Counted from the first letter of the stretch, positions 3,635 through 49,051 are shown. The stretch is 64,000 bases of DNA from Winogradskyella sp. (GCF_045105575.1 NZ_JBGCDQ010000028.1:1744-65743), one strand, 5' to 3'. Program-made: numbers and translations. The notes: a model not told the origin generated them from the letters alone.

Positions 3635-6172
3635 TTAAAAAGGATAATTAATACCGATATTATATACGGCATTTCTGAAATTATAGTCTCTAAACCAACG
3701 ATTACTGATATCTTGCGATGGATCGTAGGTTTTAAAACCAACATCAAAACGAAGAACAAAAAAATCAAAATCATACCGAATTCCGAAACCAGAGCCTACT
3801 GCAATATCTTGTAAAGATCTAAAATCGTTTAGTGTGGCAGCTTCATCTTCAACATTATCTAATACATTCCAAATGTTACCAGCATCGACAAAAACAGCTC
3901 CTTGAAAGGCTCCAAATAAGCTAAAACGCTGTTCTGCACTTAAATGAAGTTTAAAGTTAGCTTCATTAAATTCGTTGGTAGTTTTAGAACTTCCTGGACC
4001 TAAGTTAAAGGCAGTCCATGCTCTGTTGTCATTTGGTCCTCCTGCGAAAAAACTTTCTGCAAACGGAATGTTATTAGAGTTACCATAAGGAATAGCAATA
4101 CCTGCGTAACTTCTAAACGCGAAGACATTCTTTTTACCAAGATCAATATATTTTATATAATCTATTTCGGTCTTTATATATTGCGAAAAGGCAACACCAA
4201 AAATTTCGTAATTATTATCATTTTTCTCTGATCCGATAAGACTAGAAACATTTGCAAGTAAATTACCAGCCAATTCTACACGCCATTTAAAAACTGAAAA
4301 GTCATTATCGAAAGTGCTTTTTCGTTTGTCTTTTTTATAATCGAAACTGGTAGAAAAAATAAGGTTATTTTCGGTGAGTCGTTCTCTACGTTCTTCGATA
4401 TTATTTACGGCTTGAAAATCGGCAGCACTCAAGGTTTCATTTCCTGTTAAAACATCATTAATAAATACATCTGCTGGTGCAAAACTATTTGGAATGCTGC
4501 CATCAAATAGAATTTCATCATCATCTATATAATTGATGTTTCGTGCAATGGTATTTAAACTGGCAAAAGAACTGGTATAGACACCAAAATAATTACTGGT
4601 ATTTAGATTTTTTACAAAGTTGACATTAAATAATTCTAAAGTATTTGTTACGGTTGAAGACGGAAACCAATTGTAACTATAGATACTAGAAATGGCCTGT
4701 TTATCGAGACCTATGTTTTGTTGACTTGTTGCCGATAAGTTGATGATGGTGCTTGGCGACATGTATTTAGGGATAATTTTATCCGTATTAAAAGGACTAA
4801 ACAGTCTTGGTATGGTTAAACGAATATTGGCACCAAATTCGTTAATATCAAAAAAACTTGTTTCATTAGCACTAGGATTTCTAGAAGCACCAATTGCTGC
4901 AACTCCAGAAATATCTAAGGTTTCGGCACCTCTAAAAATATTTCTAATTTTTAAACCAGAGCTAAATGAAAAGCCAATGGTTTGTATGTTACTGGTATTA
5001 ATTTCAGGATCAAAACTTAAACCGTATTTCTTTTTAGGTTCTAAAAAAATATTAGCCGTTAAGGTGCTGTCTGCCTCGTTTTCAACAAAATCTACGTTTG
5101 GGTATCTAAACATTTGCAAATCGTTGAGGTAACGCTGGGTTCGGCTTCTAGCTAAATCACTGTAAGTATCTCCTTGTGTTAAAAAAACAGCATCGGTTAA
5201 CGCCTTTGGTCTAAACCTTAATTTTTCTTTACTGTACAGATTAACGTTTTTATAGATGGTGGTATCAATAATCGGTTGGTTTCTGTTACTGTAATTATCA
5301 TCCGTAAAAATATTGACGTCTTTTATTTTATAAATTTTAAAAGGTGCTGTTGTGGTGGAGTCATCACCTCTAATCGTTCGGTTGGCTATAATTAAATCCG
5401 TATGTACTTTATGGTTGGTGTTAATTGTATCCATTTCAAAACGAATATAATCTTGTCCAAAGTGATAAAAACCTCTATTTCTGAGGTATTTGTTGATACG
5501 TTCGCGTTCATTTTCATAACGCTGTTCGTCGTATTGTTCGCCTTTTTTTAATAGAGTATTTTCACTAAATTGACTGTAGAGTGAATCAATGGCAGTACTG
5601 CTAATAAAAGGTTTTAAAGAATCTAAAACATAAGGTTTATTTTTTTTGACATGATACGTTACCTGCGCTTTTTTAGTACTATCTTTTTCAACATTAAATG
5701 TAATTTCATTGTTAAACCAGCCTTTACTGTAATAGTACTTTCTTAAATTATTCGCCGTTTTTATCGTTTTTTCACCATCGTAAATCACAGGAGCCTCTCC
5801 AGTACGTTTAAGCCATGCGTTAAAATCACGTCGCGATTCTATCAGCTTATTAAACTGTTTTTTAGATAGTAATTTGGTACGTCGTCTTACTTTAGAAGTA
5901 TCATTTAACACATCAGCATACAATATGGAATCTATATTTGGCCTCGCAAGGTTATAGATGTGAAGTTTTAGTGGAAAACTTAAAATTTTTCGCATTCCGG
6001 AATTGGTGCGTTGTAAAATGATGTTATTAATACGCTCATTTGTAATTTTGGTACTGTCTTCTAAAATGGTATTGCTCGTAATAAGGTGTTCATTGGTTTT
6101 TACACGTTTTACAACATTACAAGAACTTAACATCAAAGCACCAACAACTAGCAAGATGCAACGGTAGTGCAT
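3635..6172 (-). CDS. tamL: BamA/TamA-family outer-membrane lipoprotein (TamL-like)
   Basis: Lipobox LSS-C, POTRA-like N-half, Omp85 motifs FFAGGPNDNRAW and GFGIRYDF..FVLRFD, ends YPF. Start moved to the ATG at 6172 because it gives a proper signal peptide. Confidence 0.85.
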   Translation of the reverse strand: MHYRCILLVVGALMLSSCNVVKRVKTNEHLITSNTILEDSTKITNERINNIILQRTNSGMRKILSFPLKLHIYNLARPNIDSILYADVLNDTSKVRRRTKLLSKKQFNKLIESRRDFNAWLKRTGEAPVIYDGEKTIKTANNLRKYYYSKGWFNNEITFNVEKDSTKKAQVTYHVKKNKPYVLDSLKPFISSTAIDSLYSQFSENTLLKKGEQYDEQRYENERERINKYLRNRGFYHFGQDYIRFEMDTINTNHKVHTDLIIANRTIRGDDSTTTAPFKIYKIKDVNIFTDDNYSNRNQPIIDTTIYKNVNLYSKEKLRFRPKALTDAVFLTQGDTYSDLARSRTQRYLNDLQMFRYPNVDFVENEADSTLTANIFLEPKKKYGLSFDPEINTSNIQTIGFSFSSGLKIRNIFRGAETLDISGVAAIGASRNPSANETSFFDINEFGANIRLTIPRLFSPFNTDKIIPKYMSPSTIINLSATSQQNIGLDKQAISSIYSYNWFPSSTVTNTLELFNVNFVKNLNTSNYFGVYTSSFASLNTIARNINYIDDDEILFDGSIPNSFAPADVFINDVLTGNETLSAADFQAVNNIEERRERLTENNLIFSTSFDYKKDKRKSTFDNDFSVFKWRVELAGNLLANVSSLIGSEKNDNNYEIFGVAFSQYIKTEIDYIKYIDLGKKNVFAFRSYAGIAIPYGNSNNIPFAESFFAGGPNDNRAWTAFNLGPGSSKTTNEFNEANFKLHLSAEQRFSLFGAFQGAVFVDAGNIWNVLDNVEDEAATLNDFRSLQDIAVGSGFGIRYDFDFFVLRFDVGFKTYDPSQDISNRWFRDYNFRNAVYNIGINYPF

Positions 6173-40904: not shown

Positions 40905-41618
40905 CTAATCGCTACCAAAAGTAATTGTAAGTTGTGCGGTACCTGATACATTCATTAAATCGTTTAAGAATATATCATAGTCTGGATGTGTAGTGTTTAT
41001 ACCGCCAGGTAATTCCCAAACTCTATAACCATTTGCTTCTTCATCAAAATAGGTAAAGGAAGGCTGAGATTCATTGGTCCAAGTAGATTCCTTGTTTTGA
41101 GAATATGAATAGCCAGCATAAACGATTTCATCAATTTGTAATTGATATAAGGTCGCATTTTCTTCAAATGGTATTAAAAAACCCATACGCCATTCCATTC
41201 TTGTACCATTACCCTCAGGATAACTGTCATGAAGCCAATAAACTGCATTTATTGTTTCAATAGTTACTTCTGGTTCCGTTACAAAAAAGAAACCAGCTTC
41301 AGATGTGCCGCCTCTACCATCATCTGCAATTATATATCCATCATAGCTCGTTTCAGGTTCTAATCCTGTAAAATTATAAGACAGGGTAGTGCCTCCTGTA
41401 GAAATAAGTTGGTCATTTAAATAAATAGAATACGTAATTGGGTCGTCATCAATATCTATAGCTTCTGTCCATTCAATATTAGCACCATCCATTCTGGTTT
41501 CGAGAATAGTGACTGAAAATGGTCCAGGTATAGTTTCATTTGGGTTATTACCATCATCTTCCGAAGAACAATTTACTAAGAAAAATGATAATACAAATAG
41601 ATAGGCATAATGTTTCAT
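40905..41618 (-). CDS. Fibronectin type III-like surface lipoprotein
   Basis: LVN-C followed by SSEDD; FN3 signature FTGLEPETSY. Confidence 0.75.
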   Translation of the reverse strand: MKHYAYLFVLSFFLVNCSSEDDGNNPNETIPGPFSVTILETRMDGANIEWTEAIDIDDDPITYSIYLNDQLISTGGTTLSYNFTGLEPETSYDGYIIADDGRGGTSEAGFFFVTEPEVTIETINAVYWLHDSYPEGNGTRMEWRMGFLIPFEENATLYQLQIDEIVYAGYSYSQNKESTWTNESQPSFTYFDEEANGYRVWELPGGINTTHPDYDIFLNDLMNVSGTAQLTITFGSD

Positions 41619-41646
41619 GTGTTTTGTTTTATTGGTTATTTAACAA

Positions 41647-41676
41647 TACATCGCGCAAAAACAATTATGTCATCAT
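41647..41676 (-). promoter_or_regulatory. Putative ECF promoter ATGATGACAT-N13-CGATGTA
   Basis: 28 nt upstream of ATG 41618; the same motif and spacing occur at 49022-49051. Confidence 0.6.
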
Positions 41677-41680
41677 GTTT

Positions 41681-44600
41681 TTAGGGTAAATTATATTTTT
41701 TACGTTTTTTTCTTAAGACTATAACGACTATAATTAATAGTACTAATGCAATTGCTAACCAGATCACCATATGAGAACTCGTTTTTAAGTGAATAGCATT
41801 AGTATCGCCAATAAGTACTAAACCTGCCCAATATTGAGGTGCTATGGTTCTGCCTTTAGCATTGGATATATAGTCCAATTTTGCTTTTTGTAAAGCTTCA
41901 TTTTTTGGTAATCCTTCTTTAAGATACCTGTAAAAATGTTCTATTATTTTGGCACTAGACTGCTCATCAATTTTCCATAAGCTTGTTAGTATGCTTTCAC
42001 TACCAGCATAATTAAAAGCATGTGCTAGAGAAATCATCCCTTCACCTGACTGATGCGTTGGTTTCCCAGTCTCGCAGGCTGTTAAAATGGCAAGATTTGA
42101 GGATAGATTCTGATTGTATATTTCGTAAGTATAAAGTGAATTGTCTTCATCTGAAACGTTTTTAGCAAATATAAGTCGCGATAATTCTGGTGATACATTA
42201 TTAGATTCTGCATGTGTGCCAATATGAATTATTTTATGCTCTTTGGCTCGTTCTGTAAATATTTGCTTAGATGCCTTTTCGTTTAAAAAAGAGGTTCCTT
42301 TAAATAATTTTGAATATTCCTTAGCTAAGTCCGCTGTAAATGGTTGTGGTAGTAGTTTTAAATATGTTCTATCGATGTTTATAGAATCTGTAATTGTAAC
42401 CATATAGTTTGCTTTCATTTCGCTATTAAACTCTGGGGCGAAGGCTATAAAATCGTTACTATAATCAATCGTTTTTTTGCTTTCATCGAGTAATAGCAAA
42501 CTATAATTATAAGAAATATTGTATTTAGCCAATAAGCTATTTTTGGCAAGGCCTTTGAATGTATTTATTTTGGTAGGTGTTAAGATTTCAAAACTTAAAT
42601 TGAACAATTCACCGTCTGGGAAAATAATGATATTTTTTGTTTTTATGTCACTTTCAAAATCTTGCCATAATGCTTTGTATAACTTATGATATAGCTCGCT
42701 CATTTTTGTAATATCATATTGATTTTTCCCAAGCGCATTGATGTTATTCTTTAAGTTTTTAGACTCTAGTTTAAATAATTTTTTTTCTTTTTTACCGGCA
42801 ATAAAAGCGTAAAGATTTTCTTCAATAAACAGATATCGAACTAATGTTGTGTTGTTAGGAATATTGTTTTGTAAATCAGTTAAAGGTTCTTCAATTGTAG
42901 CATAACGCATTTTGTAATATTTTGGATAACTCTGTTTTAAGGAATCTTTAAAAGACTTCCAAAGTTCTTGTGCATTAAAAAAGGTGTTAATATCATTTGA
43001 CTTGTTTAATGCTGCATACAAAGATGTTTTTAATTCTTTTTCTCTTTCAATAATGTTGCTAGGAATATCTGAAAAAGCGATGTTATTGCGTATGTTTAAA
43101 TGAGAACGAATACGATTATATATGCCAGACTCATGCATGGAAAGTATATCATTGAGATAGGTTTCATCGTTGGTTAATTCGTATAAATCTAAACAGAGTT
43201 GCTTTGCTATGTTGAATAAATCATTGTTGTCCTCGATAAGCGCAGAGATATCTTCTGATGCATTTACTACAGTTTTTCTTTGTTCTAAGATTTTTATTCC
43301 TTTTTTAATTTGCTTTAATAGGAATTGAAGAGAATCTACGTTTTTAGTTGTACTTAACTGGTATCTAGATTTTGCATTGATGTGCAAGGCTCTAGGTTTG
43401 TTCATTTCATTTTGAATAGAGTCTAAAGCATTATTCATTTTTAAATTAAATGACAGTGCTTCATTACTGTATTTTAGTGCTTCAGTATAGTTTTTTGATT
43501 TATAATGAACAAGCGCTAAGTTTTCTGTATGTTTAAATTTGCTTATTAAATTTTTAAAAGTAGCTTGTTTTGTATGATAATAACTTTCCTCAGCTAATTG
43601 TATCGCTTTTTCATTCATGCCATTTTGAGCATAAAATTGTGACATTTTTACAATAGCTTCTAAAAAATTAAAGGAGTAATTATTTTTATCTTTTTCCCTG
43701 TAAAGTGCTTCACTTTTCTTGTAGATTTTCTCTGCATTTTTAAAATCGTTTACGCTTTCGTAGATAGAAGCTCTTAATAGTAAGGCGTAATCTTGATAAT
43801 AAGGCGTATTTTCTATTGATTTTAACCCTAAATCTATATAGTAGCCAGCTTCCTCATAATTTTTGGCAACAAGATGTATGTGTCCTAAAATTAGGGCTGA
43901 TAAAATAACGTTTGGATCTTCGTTACTCATGGTTTTACGCTTTTGATCATAGGAGTAAGTAGCGACTTCAATAGCACTTTTGTTATCTCCAATACCTGAA
44001 TAAAAACCTGCTAGATTATCTATAGTTCCTAAACGAAATCGTGCAGCTCTTGTTTTTTTAGATTCATTTTCTGCAACGTTTACATAGCTTTGATAATCGG
44101 TGATTGCATTTTTCATGATGGTTATAGATTCTTCAATTTTTCCAGAATTAAATGAATTTAGACCTATGTTTTGTTTTACAATGGCTGCTCTGTAATATGC
44201 ATTCATTGGAGAATCTTCCATTTTTTGCAGAGCTTTAAGTGATTTGTTGTAGTAATAGTTTGAACTGTCTAGTTCTAACAAACTCGCTTTGATTCGTCCA
44301 ATAGAATTATAAGTAAGGTAAAATTGTTCAGCTTCAATATTTGGGTTGGCCTCAAGTATACTTTTTGATTTGTATAAATGTTTTTTAGCGAGTTCTAAAT
44401 CACTCAAATTAATTGCACAGGTTCCTAAATTGTATTCTATTTGTGCAATGTCCTTTTGAGCTAAAGGAAGTATTCTGTTTGCATAACTTAATGCTTCTTG
44501 GTTTAATTTATAATTTTTTTCAAATAATCTAGCTGTTGCATATAAATTTGCTAATTCTATCAAAGCATTTTTTGTTGTTTTTGGATGATTCGATTTTTTT

Positions 44601-44905
44601 ATAAACTCAACTAAATCTTCTGTTCTTTTAACGGCTTTATTTAGGTCATTGTTTGCTAGTTTTAAGCTACTAGTTATGGCTAAATATTTAACTAAAGAAT
44701 CGTATTGCTTTTCTGTTTTATAAGTTTTTATCTGCTTAGCTAGTATCAACTCAGCTTGTGTTATAGAGTCTTGATCAATGAGTGTATTAATCCTTTTGAA
44801 ATGAGAAGTTTGGTCATTCTGAGAATGAGCTCTATGTTGAGAGCTCAATAGAACAAAAAACAGCATAGTTATCCTAATACAATTATTAAATCGTTTCATA
44901 ATCAA
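41681..44905 (-). CDS. TPR + CHAT (caspase-like) protease with signal peptide and C-terminal TM anchor
   Basis: CHAT motifs IFPDGELFNLSFE, IHIGTHA (His), LTACETG (Cys), SLWKIDE, WAGLVLIG; TPR helices; C-terminal VIWLAIALVLLIIVVIVL-RKKRKK. Confidence 0.88.
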   Translation of the reverse strand: MIMKRFNNCIRITMLFFVLLSSQHRAHSQNDQTSHFKRINTLIDQDSITQAELILAKQIKTYKTEKQYDSLVKYLAITSSLKLANNDLNKAVKRTEDLVEFIKKSNHPKTTKNALIELANLYATARLFEKNYKLNQEALSYANRILPLAQKDIAQIEYNLGTCAINLSDLELAKKHLYKSKSILEANPNIEAEQFYLTYNSIGRIKASLLELDSSNYYYNKSLKALQKMEDSPMNAYYRAAIVKQNIGLNSFNSGKIEESITIMKNAITDYQSYVNVAENESKKTRAARFRLGTIDNLAGFYSGIGDNKSAIEVATYSYDQKRKTMSNEDPNVILSALILGHIHLVAKNYEEAGYYIDLGLKSIENTPYYQDYALLLRASIYESVNDFKNAEKIYKKSEALYREKDKNNYSFNFLEAIVKMSQFYAQNGMNEKAIQLAEESYYHTKQATFKNLISKFKHTENLALVHYKSKNYTEALKYSNEALSFNLKMNNALDSIQNEMNKPRALHINAKSRYQLSTTKNVDSLQFLLKQIKKGIKILEQRKTVVNASEDISALIEDNNDLFNIAKQLCLDLYELTNDETYLNDILSMHESGIYNRIRSHLNIRNNIAFSDIPSNIIEREKELKTSLYAALNKSNDINTFFNAQELWKSFKDSLKQSYPKYYKMRYATIEEPLTDLQNNIPNNTTLVRYLFIEENLYAFIAGKKEKKLFKLESKNLKNNINALGKNQYDITKMSELYHKLYKALWQDFESDIKTKNIIIFPDGELFNLSFEILTPTKINTFKGLAKNSLLAKYNISYNYSLLLLDESKKTIDYSNDFIAFAPEFNSEMKANYMVTITDSINIDRTYLKLLPQPFTADLAKEYSKLFKGTSFLNEKASKQIFTERAKEHKIIHIGTHAESNNVSPELSRLIFAKNVSDEDNSLYTYEIYNQNLSSNLAILTACETGKPTHQSGEGMISLAHAFNYAGSESILTSLWKIDEQSSAKIIEHFYRYLKEGLPKNEALQKAKLDYISNAKGRTIAPQYWAGLVLIGDTNAIHLKTSSHMVIWLAIALVLLIIVVIVLRKKRKKYNLP

Positions 44906-44921
44906 TTGGTTAGTGAGAAAG

Positions 44922-45662
44922 TTAATCGTTCAGTTTAGATAGGAGGACTTTACTGTTATCGATAGTTGAATTTTGTAAATTAGCTTTCGCTTTTTCTATA
45001 TTTCCTTCTTTTAAATACGCTAAACCTAAATAGTAATAGGCGTCATTAGCTAAAGGGAAATTAGAATTTTTAATAGACTTTTCTAAAAAGGAAATAGCAT
45101 CTCCTTCTTTCTTATTTGCAAGATAAGCGACACCAATAAAGTAATTTAATGTATCATTATTTGGTTTTGACTTTTGTAATGTTTCCCACTTAGAAATCGC
45201 CGTTTTGTAATCGCCTTGTTTGTAATTAACCATAGCTTCATAAAAGTCGTAGTTATTGTTGGTACTCATGGTTGTAGGTAAACCAGGATCTGGTGTAAAG
45301 TATTTTGCATACAGGCGCTCATTAGAGTTTCCGTTTAAAAACCAAAAACTACCTGCAGCAATCACTAAAGCTGCTGCAATTAAAAGGCGTTTCCAATTTA
45401 AAGAACGGACTTTAACGGTATCAGTAATTGGTTGTGTTCTGTGTTCTATTTCTAAATCATTATGAAAAACATTTAACTGCTCTTTTAGTGCTTGCGTTTC
45501 AATACCAGATAAAACAGTTTTAATGTCTTCTACTTTAATTTTAAAGTCAGCATCATTTTTTAGTTTAGCCTCAAACTCTAACAAATGTTTAGGCTCTAGT
45601 TTGCTATTGAGATAGGCCTCAATTTTTTCAAATTCGTCTTGTGATATATCACTTAAGTCCAT
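44922..45662 (-). CDS. Putative anti-sigma factor (N-terminal helical domain, TM helix, TPR C-terminus)
   Basis: IEAYLNSKL..LEFE..L N-terminus, TM LLIAAALVIAAGSFWF, TPR-like YYLGLAYLK.GN; directly after the sigma gene. Confidence 0.7.
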   Translation of the reverse strand: MDLSDISQDEFEKIEAYLNSKLEPKHLLEFEAKLKNDADFKIKVEDIKTVLSGIETQALKEQLNVFHNDLEIEHRTQPITDTVKVRSLNWKRLLIAAALVIAAGSFWFLNGNSNERLYAKYFTPDPGLPTTMSTNNNYDFYEAMVNYKQGDYKTAISKWETLQKSKPNNDTLNYFIGVAYLANKKEGDAISFLEKSIKNSNFPLANDAYYYLGLAYLKEGNIEKAKANLQNSTIDNSKVLLSKLND

Positions 45663-45667
45663 TGTTA

Positions 45668-46249
45668 TTAATCAGTTTTTAGGGCTATTTCTTTTAATTT
45701 TTGCATACATCGGTATTTTTTATTTCGTGTAGAAGCCGAATCTAATGCTAATTCTTTGGCAATTAAATTAATTGATTTCTTTTCAAAATAAAACTTACGC
45801 AGTAAGCTTTTGCATGCATCACCCAAATTTTTAAAGGCTTGCATTACGTCTTCTAATCGTTTGTCTTTTAAAATGTCATCATCCATTCCATTGTTTTCTT
45901 CATCTTTTATTTCAAAATGGCTTAATTGAGAAGCAACGATTGTTTTTTTATAGCCTTGAGACCTTAGAACATCCATCCATTTGTTTTTAGCAATAGTGTA
46001 GAGGTATCCGTTTATGGACGACTCACTTCTTGGTACAAATTTGTTTTGCTTAATGTTTTGCCAAACGGCTAAAAAGGCATCTTGATAGATGTCTTTTGCT
46101 TGGTCTTTAGAACCATTATTTTTTAAAACCAGTATTTCAATTTTTGGGTAATTAGAGGTGTACAGATTTTTTAATACTTGCGTATTATTGTTCTGTATAG
46201 CTTCTATAAAGCCTTGATTTTTAGTTAGGATAGAACTTTTCTCTTGCAT
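45668..46249 (-). CDS. ECF-type RNA polymerase sigma factor
   Basis: Region 2 AKDIYQDAFL ... YLYTIAKNKW; region 4 C..LL..FYFEK.S...IA..L ... KKYRC. Confidence 0.88.
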   Translation of the reverse strand: MQEKSSILTKNQGFIEAIQNNNTQVLKNLYTSNYPKIEILVLKNNGSKDQAKDIYQDAFLAVWQNIKQNKFVPRSESSINGYLYTIAKNKWMDVLRSQGYKKTIVASQLSHFEIKDEENNGMDDDILKDKRLEDVMQAFKNLGDACKSLLRKFYFEKKSINLIAKELALDSASTRNKKYRCMQKLKEIALKTD

Positions 46250-46332
46250 TGAGCACTAAATATAAGAGAAACGTATGATTTATCAAACGATGAGCGATTA
46301 ATTACATATTATAATTGCTGAAATTGAAATTT

Positions 46333-46952
46333 TTAAGTTTTTTTAATCATGTTTTTTCCAGCCCAACCTGTTCCAACAATAATAAAGAGCAATCCAGACC
46401 AACGCATTAAATTAAAACCAGATGATGGATTATTCATCTTAAATTCAAACACAGATTTTCCAAATGCGTCTTTATCAATTTTAATAGTATTGGCTTCCTC
46501 TGGAAAATTAATTATATGAGTTTGTTGTAGGTTATCGCCAAATTCTGGCGGACTACTTACAAGCATATATTTATGATCTGTAAGCGCTGTAACTTGCGCA
46601 TCCTTTTCATCTGTTTCTATAATCCATTTGCCACGTTTATCTATTTTGCAAACACCATAAGCGTTAAAACTTAAGTTAAAAGACCTATTCATATCATCTT
46701 TATCGAGTTTAAAATCATCTAAAATGAATGCTGCATACCACGTTCTTTATCGCGCTTTAATGTTGAAGGATTATTATCATAATTGGTGTTCCATTCGTTC
46801 CATTGTGCCGCATTCATAGTCATTGAAATATTGATTTTAGCATTGCCAATAGCATCTAAAGTCATTTCTATCTTCTGATTAGATTATTGTGAAAAAATCA
46901 TTAATCCATTTGCAAGAATCAAAACTGTTAATAATAGTTTTAATGTTTTCAT
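46333..46952 (-). pseudogene. Degraded exported/membrane protein gene (nonsense codon plus frameshift)
   Basis: MKTLKLLLTVLILANGLMIFSQ*SNQKIEMT...; TAA at 46886-46884; a frameshift between 46746 and 46719 joins ORF 46333..46692, which ends in a TM helix. Confidence 0.7.
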
Positions 46953-47110
46953 TTTAATTTGTTTTTAGGCTATCTAATACTGTTATAAACTTGATTTATA
47001 ATTCCTGAATTTTGACTAAATATAATCTGGTGCTCCTACTGTTACAAATCTTTACTATTCTTAAGCATTCATAGTCATAGAAGTTTATTTTCAAATTGCT
47101 AACTGGGTTA

Positions 47111-48214
47111 TTAGTTATTAATTGTTGTACTATTCCAGTCTCTATTGTTATAATTTGGATCCTTATTAGGGTCATAATTTGGGTCGTTACTAGAAATATA
47201 TTGACCATCATTATTCATCCAGTAATAATTGCTACCAGCATCGACTTTATAAGATTGTCCAGAATTGCTAGTTACTGTAGTTCTTTCGAGATGTGCATCC
47301 ATAAATTTCTGATGATTTCGGTCCACCGAAGCGCTATATTGTTTTCCGCGTTCAATAATAGCCTGTCCTTCAGCACGTAAATTCGCCATTCTCTGTTGAT
47401 GTAATTTGCCACTTTGTCGGGCAAAGTTTGCATCCTTCATATAAAAATAATGCAAATATTGTGGATTGTATTTTTTGTTAGCTTGGGCATAGATAAAATC
47501 CTTTTTTGTTTGCTCAAAGTGTTTGGTATCTACGTCTATACCTTGTAAATAAAATCCCCAAGCTACTTGTTGTTGGTTATCATAAGCCGCAGAATAGTGC
47601 ACTAGAATCAAAGAAGATGTTCCTGTATTACTCTTCCATTCTGAAGCAACAACATCAATTGTTTTACTTTGTTCATAGCCAGATTTAAATTTAAACTGTT
47701 CGTAATTTTTATCATAAGCAATCAACTCTGGTACTTTATACATTTTAACTAATTCTACACCATCTTGTTTAAAAGTTGGAGCAATCATTTCCTTAATGAC
47801 TTGCTCTGGTGTTTTTACAGGCAAAACTGCATTACCAGTTTGTGCAGCGGTTTGGTTTATAAACGGATCGCTTGAGTAAGTGTACATTGCACCTTGCTCG
47901 CCAAAAAACTTAAACCCATTATTACCAGTCATTTGTGTTTGAGCATTTGGGCTTTTTGGAGTCATTTTCCAATCTGATGGCACTGGCATCTGAAACATAT
48001 CCATATTAAGTTGGTCATCTCTAAAGGTTTTAAATTGAATAGATTTTGCGGGAATTGCAGATGTTCTGCTAGTTGTGTTTGCGTTAATTGCGCCTTTAAA
48101 TTCTGAAACATTATTATAAAATTGAACAGAATTATTTGCGTGTGGTTGATTTTGGCAAGATGTAAAAAAGATGCTAAAGATGAATATAACTGATAGTGTG
48201 AGTGAATATTTCAT
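47111..48214 (-). CDS. Lipoprotein of unknown function
   Basis: FTS-C lipobox; N/D/P/Y-rich C-terminus (SNDPNYDPNKDPNYNN). Confidence 0.75.
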   Translation of the reverse strand: MKYSLTLSVIFIFSIFFTSCQNQPHANNSVQFYNNVSEFKGAINANTTSRTSAIPAKSIQFKTFRDDQLNMDMFQMPVPSDWKMTPKSPNAQTQMTGNNGFKFFGEQGAMYTYSSDPFINQTAAQTGNAVLPVKTPEQVIKEMIAPTFKQDGVELVKMYKVPELIAYDKNYEQFKFKSGYEQSKTIDVVASEWKSNTGTSSLILVHYSAAYDNQQQVAWGFYLQGIDVDTKHFEQTKKDFIYAQANKKYNPQYLHYFYMKDANFARQSGKLHQQRMANLRAEGQAIIERGKQYSASVDRNHQKFMDAHLERTTVTSNSGQSYKVDAGSNYYWMNNDGQYISSNDPNYDPNKDPNYNNRDWNSTTINN

Positions 48215-48240
48215 AATATTAGAAGTTTGTTTTTAATAAA

Positions 48241-48990
48241 TTATTGTCTGTTTGGATCAAAAGGAAAATTGTCTTGGTTATCAGGAGTTCCATCTAAATC
48301 TGAATCTCTTACACTATTGTCAATAATTAAAAGTTGCCAATGAATTGGTAAAAAATCGTTCATAACTAAATTGTCATATTCTGCTGTAGGCCCAGACGCC
48401 ACAGAAACTGAAGCAAATGTTGAACCTAAAGAAGTATCAAAAAATGAATTAATAGCGACTAAAGCAGTGAAATTCCCAAAGCGTATTAAACGTGTACTTG
48501 TACTACTAATAAAATTGCCTAATGGTTGAGTTGTATTTTGCTCGCAATCCACAGTGAAGTTTCCTGTATGTCCGTAAAACGCAAATAATTGGTTGACTTC
48601 CGCTGCAACGATGTCTAATATATTTATTTGGTTAAATGCCGTGAGTCCAGGAACGTAACGCCAAACCACTTGGTTGTCATTTCTAAAAACATTAACTCCT
48701 AATCCTGTCTGAGCTTCAGATGCACTATAACCTTGAGGCATAATAAAACCTAATGCAGGATATTGACTGTGGATAAATTGTTGCCCAGGATTAGACAAGG
48801 TTGGTATGCTTGTTAATGGTAAAGGTAAACCGTGTGCATTATCCCAATAGGCAGCCGTGGGTCCAGAAATATTTAAACATAATTCTGAATTGAAATTTCT
48901 AAGATTATTAGGATCAGAGGTAGAATTTTTACTGCAAGAATTAAAACAAATAAACAGTAAACTAATTTTTAAAAGATGGCAAGGTTTCAT
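48241..48990 (-). CDS. Lipoprotein with a C-terminal thrombospondin type 3-like Ca2+-binding repeat
   Basis: FNS-C lipobox; DSDLDGTPDNQDNFPFDP. Confidence 0.75.
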   Translation of the reverse strand: MKPCHLLKISLLFICFNSCSKNSTSDPNNLRNFNSELCLNISGPTAAYWDNAHGLPLPLTSIPTLSNPGQQFIHSQYPALGFIMPQGYSASEAQTGLGVNVFRNDNQVVWRYVPGLTAFNQINILDIVAAEVNQLFAFYGHTGNFTVDCEQNTTQPLGNFISSTSTRLIRFGNFTALVAINSFFDTSLGSTFASVSVASGPTAEYDNLVMNDFLPIHWQLLIIDNSVRDSDLDGTPDNQDNFPFDPNRQ

Positions 48991-49021
48991 AAAAAAGGAA
49001 TGTTTAACGTGTTGTTATGTC

Positions 49022-49051
49022 TATATCGAAGTTTTTTTAAAATGTCATCAT
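49022..49051 (-). promoter_or_regulatory. Putative ECF promoter ATGATGACAT-N13-CGATATA
   Basis: 31 nt upstream of ATG 48990; matches 41647-41676. Confidence 0.6.

Follow-up and report, generated by a model that had tools for sequence, protein, structure and literature searches.

A split module of ECF sigma factor, anti-sigma-like protein and CHAT protease in Winogradskyella and other Bacteroidota: a candidate proteolytic signalling cascade

Introduction

Regulated proteolysis of anti-sigma factors is a central principle of bacterial signalling. The described system closest to the locus considered here is DdvA/DdvS of Myxococcus xanthus, in which an anti-sigma domain, a transmembrane (TM) helix and a periplasmic TPR-CHAT region are joined in one polypeptide (PMC11506125). 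The CHAT domain of DdvA has been proposed, but not proven, to act as a site-1 protease, and removal of the TPR-CHAT part makes DdvA a substrate of RseP; DdvA-like proteins have been reported only in Myxococcota and one Comamonas (PMC11506125). In Actinobacteria, the extracytoplasmic function (ECF) sigma factors of group ECF54 have carboxypeptidase, subtilase and CHAT neighbours; proteolytic control has been proposed for them, and they are described without an anti-sigma factor (PMC8999054, PMC7826278). Among anti-sigma systems of this kind, DdvA is the only one with a caspase-like CHAT protease that has been studied, and progress on it has stalled: its signal has not been identified, and protease and substrate are one chain. 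Here we describe a three-gene module in Winogradskyella sp. that encodes an ECF sigma factor, a membrane-spanning TPR protein (TM-TPR) that resembles an anti-sigma factor, and a TPR-CHAT protease. The trio lies at 41681-46249 of a 64,000-nucleotide stretch of the genome (GCF_045105575.1 NZ_JBGCDQ010000028.1:1744-65743), hereafter the window.

The best explanation of our observations is, we propose, a self-contained ECF module made up of the sigma factor, its probable anti-sigma factor and a periplasmic CHAT protease that would cut the anti-sigma factor in trans. We assign this reading a probability of roughly 40%, and the alternatives are weighed below as the evidence that bears on them arises.

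Results

A conserved trio of sigma, TM-TPR and CHAT genes

All three open reading frames (ORFs) lie on the minus strand and run in the order sigma, TM-TPR, CHAT, with intergenic gaps of 5 and 16 nt, which agrees with the tightly packed, co-oriented arrangement given in the original prediction. The first ORF (46249..45668, minus strand) encodes a 193-residue protein that matches Sigma70_r2 at 1.6e-10 and the ECF superfamily model TIGR02937 at 63.4 bits over residues 27-187 (cut-off 42.9); having only the sigma2 and sigma4 regions together with the superfamily match, it is an ECF (group IV) sigma factor. The second (45662..44922, minus strand) encodes the anti-sigma-like TM-TPR protein of 246 residues, with TPR_2 and TPR_16 matches and one hydrophobic stretch. 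The third (44905..41681, minus strand) encodes a caspase-like TPR-CHAT protease of 1,074 residues, matching PF12770 and TPR_12 and predicted to be periplasmic and anchored in the inner membrane. As listed, the CHAT ORF begins at a TTG (44905); the ATG at 44899 (MKRF...) is the likely start, which would widen the gap to the TM-TPR gene to 22 nt. Public gene calls of the protein differ at this point, one giving 1,072 residues from that ATG and another 1,022 residues, about 50 fewer, with the signal peptide missed. Because the shorter call lacks this conserved feature, automated prediction of topology or localisation from it would wrongly assign a cytoplasmic location to the protease.

At least 498 relatives of the CHAT protein were identified in genomes representative of their species, and the best 79 loci were used for neighbourhood counts, ORF starts in them being set at the first in-frame start codon, so that some are over-extended. 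These loci belong mostly to Flavobacteriaceae, with some from Chitinophagaceae, Cyclobacteriaceae and Lentimicrobium; the nearest relative among those found is a Winogradskyella metagenome-assembled genome (76% identity). Neighbourhood conservation, which the original prediction had proposed as a check, is pronounced: sigma, TM-TPR and CHAT genes are directly adjacent, co-oriented and in the same order in 62 of the 79 related loci. The arrangement lies far beyond chance. Within these 62 trio loci the gap between the TM-TPR and CHAT genes is mostly -4 to +20 nt, and that between sigma and TM-TPR is about -11 to +13 nt in most, more negative values reflecting over-extended starts.

The Winogradskyella genome itself (3.36 Mb, 75 contigs) holds three CHAT genes, each beside its own pair of ECF sigma and TM-TPR genes, and the three trios are arranged differently: co-oriented at this locus, convergent on contig C75 and divergent on C27. 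When all ORFs of the genome were searched with profiles, three sigma factors of the subfamily stood out (278, 151 and 127 bits, versus at most 54 for the other 16 ECF-like ORFs), and the same searches found exactly three TM-TPR and three TPR-CHAT proteins, always grouped with a subfamily sigma. Of 151 genomes sampled from the order, 22 encode TM-TPR homologues, and in the reverse search a CHAT gene lay within 8 kb for 20 of 25 TM-TPR family members in other genomes. Sigma, TM-TPR and CHAT are one conserved functional unit that is widespread in Bacteroidota. The alternative that three unrelated genes merely lie side by side, with no functional meaning, is extremely improbable: the trio is kept across Bacteroidota families, three paralogous trios exist in one genome, and a promoter motif, described below, is shared.

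Sigma factors of the subfamily also have two near-invariant cysteines in region 4, C146 and C181, which are present in both paralogues as well.

A secreted, membrane-anchored protease with an intact catalytic dyad

The CHAT domain was recognised by PF12770 at 4.1e-41, over profile positions 3-289 of 289 and residues 738-1034, and is preceded by a long TPR region with TPR_12 matches. The protein is laid out as a signal peptide (residues 1-28), a TPR array (about 29-600), the CHAT domain (about 680-1035), a hydrophobic TM helix (about 1046-1064) and a basic tail (LRKKRKKYNLP); the signal peptide would be cleaved between …RAHS and QNDQ. Among 65 relatives, 62 retain the signal peptide, usually with Gln at position +1 of the cleavage site, and 58 retain the C-terminal TM helix with its basic tail; relatives without one or the other are truncated sequences or fall just under the hydropathy threshold. 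The catalytic motifs are HIGTH (894-898) and TACETG (942-947), and H898 and C944 are invariant in 60 of 60 aligned full-length relatives and in both paralogues. The catalytic residues and the periplasm-facing topology that had been read from this single sequence are thus conserved features of the family. Together they support a protease that faces the periplasm, is anchored on the inner membrane and retains an intact His-Cys dyad.

An AlphaFold2 model built from the alignment of relatives reached a predicted local distance difference test score (pLDDT) of 86.6 and a predicted template-modelling score of 0.80, with a helix at 1045-1071. The best Foldseek matches to this model were separase, the TPR-CHAT protein of Craspase (Csx29) and DdvA, at E values of 1e-12 to 1e-10 (1.3e-10 for DdvA, 8rot_A). 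Sequence and profile searches of the PDB with the CHAT protein returned TPR proteins only, so that separase, Craspase and DdvA were seen by fold search alone. Columns conserved at 90% or more are sparse in the TPR array (12 of 532) compared with the CHAT domain (137 of 355). A fast-evolving TPR array joined to a conserved CHAT domain suggests a sensor-like pattern.

The TM-TPR protein as probable anti-sigma factor

The middle protein has a helical, cytoplasmic N-terminus (residues about 1-88), one TM helix (about 91-111) and a periplasmic TPR domain (about 136-246), within which TPR_2 and TPR_16 match residues 131-231; these features bear out the topology first proposed for it. It shares with class I anti-sigma factors a gene that adjoins the sigma gene (5-nt gap), a single TM helix and an extracytoplasmic domain, here of TPR type. 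Searched as a profile against the PDB, the protein returned generic TPR matches only.

Residues 1-88 of its N-terminus hold no cysteine, and the zinc site is consequently absent; no zf-HC2 match above cut-off was found anywhere in this genome. When 1.84 billion representatives were searched with a profile of the first 90 residues, 4493 proteins matched, and almost every one of the best 150 shared the architecture of about 245 residues. The profile also matched P0152, a protein of 660 residues, at E 3.4e-15. P0152 is built from six repeats, which Pfam assigns to zf-HC2 (1e-28) and RseA_N (1.5e-12). This match lends moderate support to reading the N-terminus as an anti-sigma domain without a zinc site, and the TM-TPR protein is most likely the anti-sigma factor of the neighbouring sigma. 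One cytoplasmic residue, His67 (45462-45464, minus strand), is near-invariant.

The most conserved part of the family lies on the periplasmic side, next to the membrane, and reads (L/I)(Y/F)xx(Y/F)FxPDPGLPT(T/V)M(S/G); here it is YFxPDPGLPTTMS, at residues 121-133. Among TM-TPR homologues of other genomes (L088-L116), the sister subfamily that resembles paralogue B, with a convergent CHAT gene, has a conserved motif of its own, YF(E/K)(P/A)Y(P/T)N(V/I)xxPxxR(S/G), where PDPGLPTTMS would stand. A further variant is P0126, a metagenomic protein of 413 residues in which a shortened subfamily sigma is fused in frame to a TM-TPR protein with a degenerate juxtamembrane motif; this fusion may be a decaying locus or an artefact of gene calling.

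A promoter motif and a local regulon

A bipartite, ECF-type motif, TGATGACA-N14-CGAT, was first seen upstream of two predicted lipoprotein genes that flank the trio, one encoding 249 residues and the other an fn3-like protein. In its strict form the motif occurs four times in the 3.36-Mb genome, versus none in shuffled sequence, and three of the four fall within this locus, each on the coding strand. P1 (49025..49050, minus strand; TGATGACATTTTAAAAAAACTTCGAT) lies 34 nt before the ATG of the 249-residue lipoprotein gene and has the highest position weight matrix score in the genome (33.6). P2 (45856..45881, minus strand) falls inside the sigma gene, in the codons of the linker between sigma2 and sigma4 (MDDDILKDKRL), 193 nt before the TM-TPR ATG. 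P3 (41650..41675, minus strand; TGATGACATAATTGTTTTTGCGCGAT) is just past the CHAT stop codon, 31 nt before the ATG of the fn3-like lipoprotein gene. With a matrix built from related loci, P1, P2 and P3 were the only sites of the genome that scored above the training range.

The core, GATGACA-N14-CGAT, was found in 116 copies in 65 of the 79 loci (related loci and the window's own), versus about 0.5 expected from composition, with further conserved positions around it (TGATGACATTTT…CGAT(G)T). An ATG-started ORF of at least 60 residues begins within 300 nt of 106 of the 116 core copies, the usual spacing from motif to ATG being 28-32 nt. The genes that follow are those of a 367-residue lipoprotein family (21 copies), TM-TPR (17), the 249-residue lipoprotein family (15) and sigma (14), besides a variety of exported proteins. 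P1-like motifs also precede the homologous lipoprotein genes of related loci, and about ten related loci have a motif 8-190 nt past the CHAT stop. Because the core is so far in excess of expectation and stands beside genes of the module, the module appears to have a strictly local regulon, with CHAT and the anti-sigma-like gene among its targets. Classical ECF promoters of the SigW/SigX type have the form AAC-N16-CGT, and the architecture of the motif (…GAC, 15 nt, CGAT) is similar. We infer that the sigma factor of this locus recognises TGATGACA-N14-CGAT.

The sigma gene itself seems to be served differently. A motif common to all loci was sought within 300 nt upstream of the sigma genes and none was found, the closest relatives showing only a housekeeping-like TTG/TAnnTTT. 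Here, a consensus scan placed a housekeeping-type element, TTGATA-N16-TATATT, within TTTG-N19-TATATTTAG just before the sigma ATG (46259..46286, minus strand). This element is conserved in the closest relatives, L074 and L048, and presumably drives the sigma gene. Read-through from P1 is possible, since the coding strand of the locus showed no terminator-like site.

The copy inside the sigma gene

The position of P2 is shared by 16 loci, this one and 15 relatives. A motif inside the sigma gene is found in 16 loci and a motif at most 400 nt upstream of it in another 16, and no locus has both. At the fixed bases of the motif, synonymous third positions are 94-100% fixed, versus about 45-50% in several conserved codons downstream; two successive Asp residues, for example, are encoded by GAT and then GAC, and Arg by CGA. 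The residues encoded by this region vary in loci without the internal motif. With synonymous sites fixed and the residues variable elsewhere, selection acts at the level of DNA, and P2 is a real DNA element. As the sigma gene stands behind the housekeeping-like element, and P2 before the anti-sigma-like gene and CHAT, activity of the sigma factor would raise these two and not the sigma factor itself. The circuit in this clade, as far as its layout indicates, would be one of negative or homeostatic feedback.

An invariant ATG, encoding Met136 of the sigma factor, lies 11 nt past the CGAT in all 16 loci with an internal promoter (45846-45881, minus strand); of the 46 loci that lack such a promoter, only 19 have Met136. 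Given this spacing, a near-leaderless transcript could encode a peptide of 58 residues, consisting of sigma4 only, ahead of the anti-sigma and CHAT genes. Such a peptide might titrate the anti-sigma factor as a decoy, or Met136 might be an effect of clade.

Flanking lipoprotein genes

To the upstream side of the trio lie two genes that form a predicted operon behind P1. The first (48241..48990, minus strand) encodes the predicted lipoprotein of 249 residues (…CFNSC…), a predicted member of the regulon without a Pfam family, whose homologues in 16 related module loci lie upstream in the same orientation or, convergently, immediately past CHAT. The second (47111..48214, minus strand) encodes a predicted lipoprotein of 367 residues (…FFTSC…), likewise without a Pfam family, whose relatives are all annotated as hypothetical. 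About half of the module loci contain a member of the 367-residue family, which in most cases lies immediately upstream in the same orientation. An AlphaFold2 model of this protein (pLDDT 86.4) shows a PsbP/Mog1-like sandwich, a long helix of 58 residues and a small beta domain; against the PDB it gave weak matches only, to PsbP and MTC28. The most similar relatives of the window's 367-residue protein encoded in the related loci come from the Aequorivita loci L011, L020, L027 and L055 (at about 4685-5880), and the 367-family gene of L011, upstream of an orphan CHAT gene, has the promoter motif 54 nt before it.

Downstream of CHAT and behind P3 is the gene of the fn3-like predicted lipoprotein (40905..41618, minus strand; 237 residues), a predicted regulon member whose fn3 match (6e-5) is just below cut-off. 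It appears to be variable cargo: among the related loci, a clear homologue was found in L050 only, with a weak partial match in L075. Between the 367-residue lipoprotein gene and sigma is a disrupted copy of an exported protein of about 205 residues (46333..46952, minus strand), detected by tblastn with the intact homologues of 204-206 residues from L052, L054 and L044. The family has a signal peptide and a C-terminal TM helix and is intact at the same position, just upstream of sigma, in several related loci. In the copy here, a stop codon directly follows the signal peptide and the frame shifts near 46720, giving two tblastn pieces in different frames, and an ORF of 119 residues (46692..46333) is its C-terminal remnant. 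PADLOC assigned none of seven module proteins to a known defence family, and cluster look-ups gave no names, the clusters holding the window's own proteins only.

The original prediction had confined the unit to 41681-46249. The trio stands as a functional unit; the unit as a whole is larger, spanning about 40905-49050 with its three promoter copies and flanking lipoprotein genes.

Cargo of another kind accompanies the paralogous module on C27 (module C; L005, C27:30000-46000). There, sigma and TM-TPR genes are followed by a gene for a secreted non-specific endonuclease (Endonuclease_NS, 4e-52), and the divergent CHAT gene by four genes, encoding a C39-VKOR-thioredoxin protein, a C39 ABC exporter, an HlyD protein and a peptide of 105 residues with a GG-type leader (…QIFGG) and a Gly/Cys-rich body.

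A proposed proteolytic pathway and its alternatives

In the pathway that we propose, the N-terminus of TM-TPR would hold the sigma factor. The fast-evolving TPR array would read a cue in the periplasm, probably a protein, and the cue would switch on the conserved CHAT domain. CHAT would then cut the periplasmic part of the neighbouring anti-sigma factor in trans, as a site-1 protease, after which an RseP homologue would cut within the membrane and free the sigma factor. A candidate for this site-2 protease is encoded elsewhere in the genome (Peptidase_M50, PF02163, 2.1e-52; C31:29077-30348). The central step, in which CHAT serves as site-1 protease on the anti-sigma factor, is suggested by topology, by the tight coupling of the genes and by analogy with DdvA/DdvS, and is put forward tentatively, at less than even odds; the complete trans-acting caspase-family pathway, from protein cue through TPR and CHAT to RseP, is as a single claim somewhat doubtful. 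By that analogy, the mechanism would amount to the DdvA/DdvS system of Myxococcus split into two membrane proteins.

Several observations weigh against this proposal. When the N-termini of 61 members were searched with Pfam hidden Markov models, only 2 matched zf-HC2 (E 0.2), and no anti-sigma family came out of a profile search of the PDB. An analogous juxtamembrane motif is present in sister subfamilies, including loci without a CHAT gene within 8 kb, and the motif is for that reason possibly structural rather than a cleavage site. We had considered DPGLPTTM(S/G) as evidence of a cleavage site, with Met at P1 as in some craspases, and rejected it on the same ground; the motif is kept as a candidate site of cleavage or docking. 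In DdvA, mutants of the dyad had no phenotype and the signal is not identified (PMC11506125).

Two further points, both from gene arrangement, count against the proposal and lead to a different role for CHAT. As would be expected of an output gene, CHAT is preceded by the promoter of the module, and in Aequorivita, CHAT orthologues without an adjacent sigma or anti-sigma gene directly follow a 367-family lipoprotein gene, an arrangement that ties CHAT to the lipoproteins as much as to the anti-sigma factor. CHAT might then be an output of the system: sigma and anti-sigma would sense through the anti-sigma factor's own TPR domain and another site-1 protease, and the regulon would deliver CHAT together with the lipoproteins that it handles. 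Those lipoproteins, such as the PsbP-like 367-residue protein, may be processed or matured by CHAT, or used by it as adaptors or substrates. This account fits the presence of the module motif before CHAT in both settings, with the anti-sigma gene behind P2 and with the 367-family gene in Aequorivita; it fits also the separate transcription unit that CHAT forms in paralogues B and C, and the recurrence of the 367- and 249-residue families with the module. It fits less well with CHAT being the constant partner while the lipoprotein cargo differs by locus. The TM-TPR and CHAT genes are, moreover, usually translationally coupled or overlapping, as is typical of stoichiometric partners, and the DdvA fusion physically joins anti-sigma and TPR-CHAT (PMC11506125). 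We regard an output role as rather unlikely, yet as the main and a serious rival to direct cleavage.

The coupling of the two genes would also suit a role for CHAT as a sensor partner of TM-TPR in a DdvA-like complex, in which the target of cleavage would be CHAT itself, a lipoprotein ligand or some foreign protein rather than the anti-sigma factor. A conformational change, or the loss of shielding, would then expose the anti-sigma factor to RseP or another protease. The two proteins have membrane and compartment in common, the variability of the TPR array suggests that its protein ligands are diverse, and the bulky TPR-CHAT part of DdvA sterically blocks RseP (PMC11506125). This explanation is more complicated than direct cleavage, however, and no particular substrate is indicated; the invariant dyad shows that catalysis matters and is silent on the target. 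It strikes us as quite improbable. Direct cleavage of the anti-sigma factor by CHAT remains the reading that we prefer.

Discussion

Marine and soil Bacteroidota commonly carry the module, and our literature searches found no description of a split ECF/CHAT module in that phylum. Should the proposed mechanism be correct, no other stand-alone protease of clan CD would have been shown before CHAT to gate an ECF sigma factor, and the module would supply the proof of principle that DdvA is missing. Since the enzyme and its presumed substrate are encoded by separate genes, catalytic mutants, cleavage assays and reconstitution are straightforward, and the promoter motif can be used directly as a reporter and delimits a small regulon at the locus.

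Comparison with known systems

Like classical regulated intramembrane proteolysis (RseA-DegS-RseP and RsiW-PrsW-RasP), the module has a single-pass anti-sigma-like protein, a proposed outer site-1 cut and, in the genome, an M50 homologue. In the classical systems, however, the site-1 enzyme is a serine or metalloprotease encoded elsewhere, whereas the candidate here is a clan-CD CHAT protease encoded in the operon. With ECF54 the module shares an ECF sigma gene near a CHAT protein; unlike ECF54, it is found in Bacteroidota and has an anti-sigma-like gene.

The original prediction had cast the locus as a non-CRISPR analogue of CHAT-to-sigma signalling. Type III-E Craspase (Cas7-11/TPR-CHAT Csx29, Csx30 and RpoE) likewise places a TPR-CHAT protein beside an ECF-like sigma factor and shares the idea of proteolytic sigma release. 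The nearest known system is nevertheless DdvA/DdvS and not Craspase-Csx30-RpoE. Craspase is cytoplasmic, RNA-guided and CRISPR-linked, whereas the protease of the module is exported and anchored in the membrane, and the module has no CRISPR or Cas gene; its sigma factor scores 34.8 bits on the III-E model NF041236, for which the cut-off is 100.

The likeness to DdvA/DdvS lies in the parts and in the proposed logic. Both have an ECF sigma factor, a single-pass anti-sigma or anti-sigma-like protein and a periplasmic TPR-CHAT region with a His-Cys dyad; in both, a CHAT cut at site 1 is proposed to be followed by RseP, and in neither has the signal been identified. The differences are substantial. 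The parts joined in DdvA are on two genes in all 62 loci, with no fused ORF seen among them, and the CHAT protein has its own signal peptide and C-terminal TM helix. The cytoplasmic N-terminus lacks cysteine, whereas that of DdvA has a CHCC zinc site, and the CHAT domain matches the Pfam family over its full length, whereas that of DdvA lacks three helices. DdvA is linked to an island of CRISPR and CBASS (cyclic-oligonucleotide-based antiphage signalling system) genes; the predicted regulon of the module consists of a few adjacent lipoprotein genes, and PADLOC found no defence system in it. DdvA-like proteins, finally, are those of Myxococcota and one Comamonas, and the module is in Bacteroidota. 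The module thus resembles DdvA in its proposed working and is not a member of the DdvA protein family. It looks like a split version of a DdvA-type system, and the promoter motif and local regulon described here are new.

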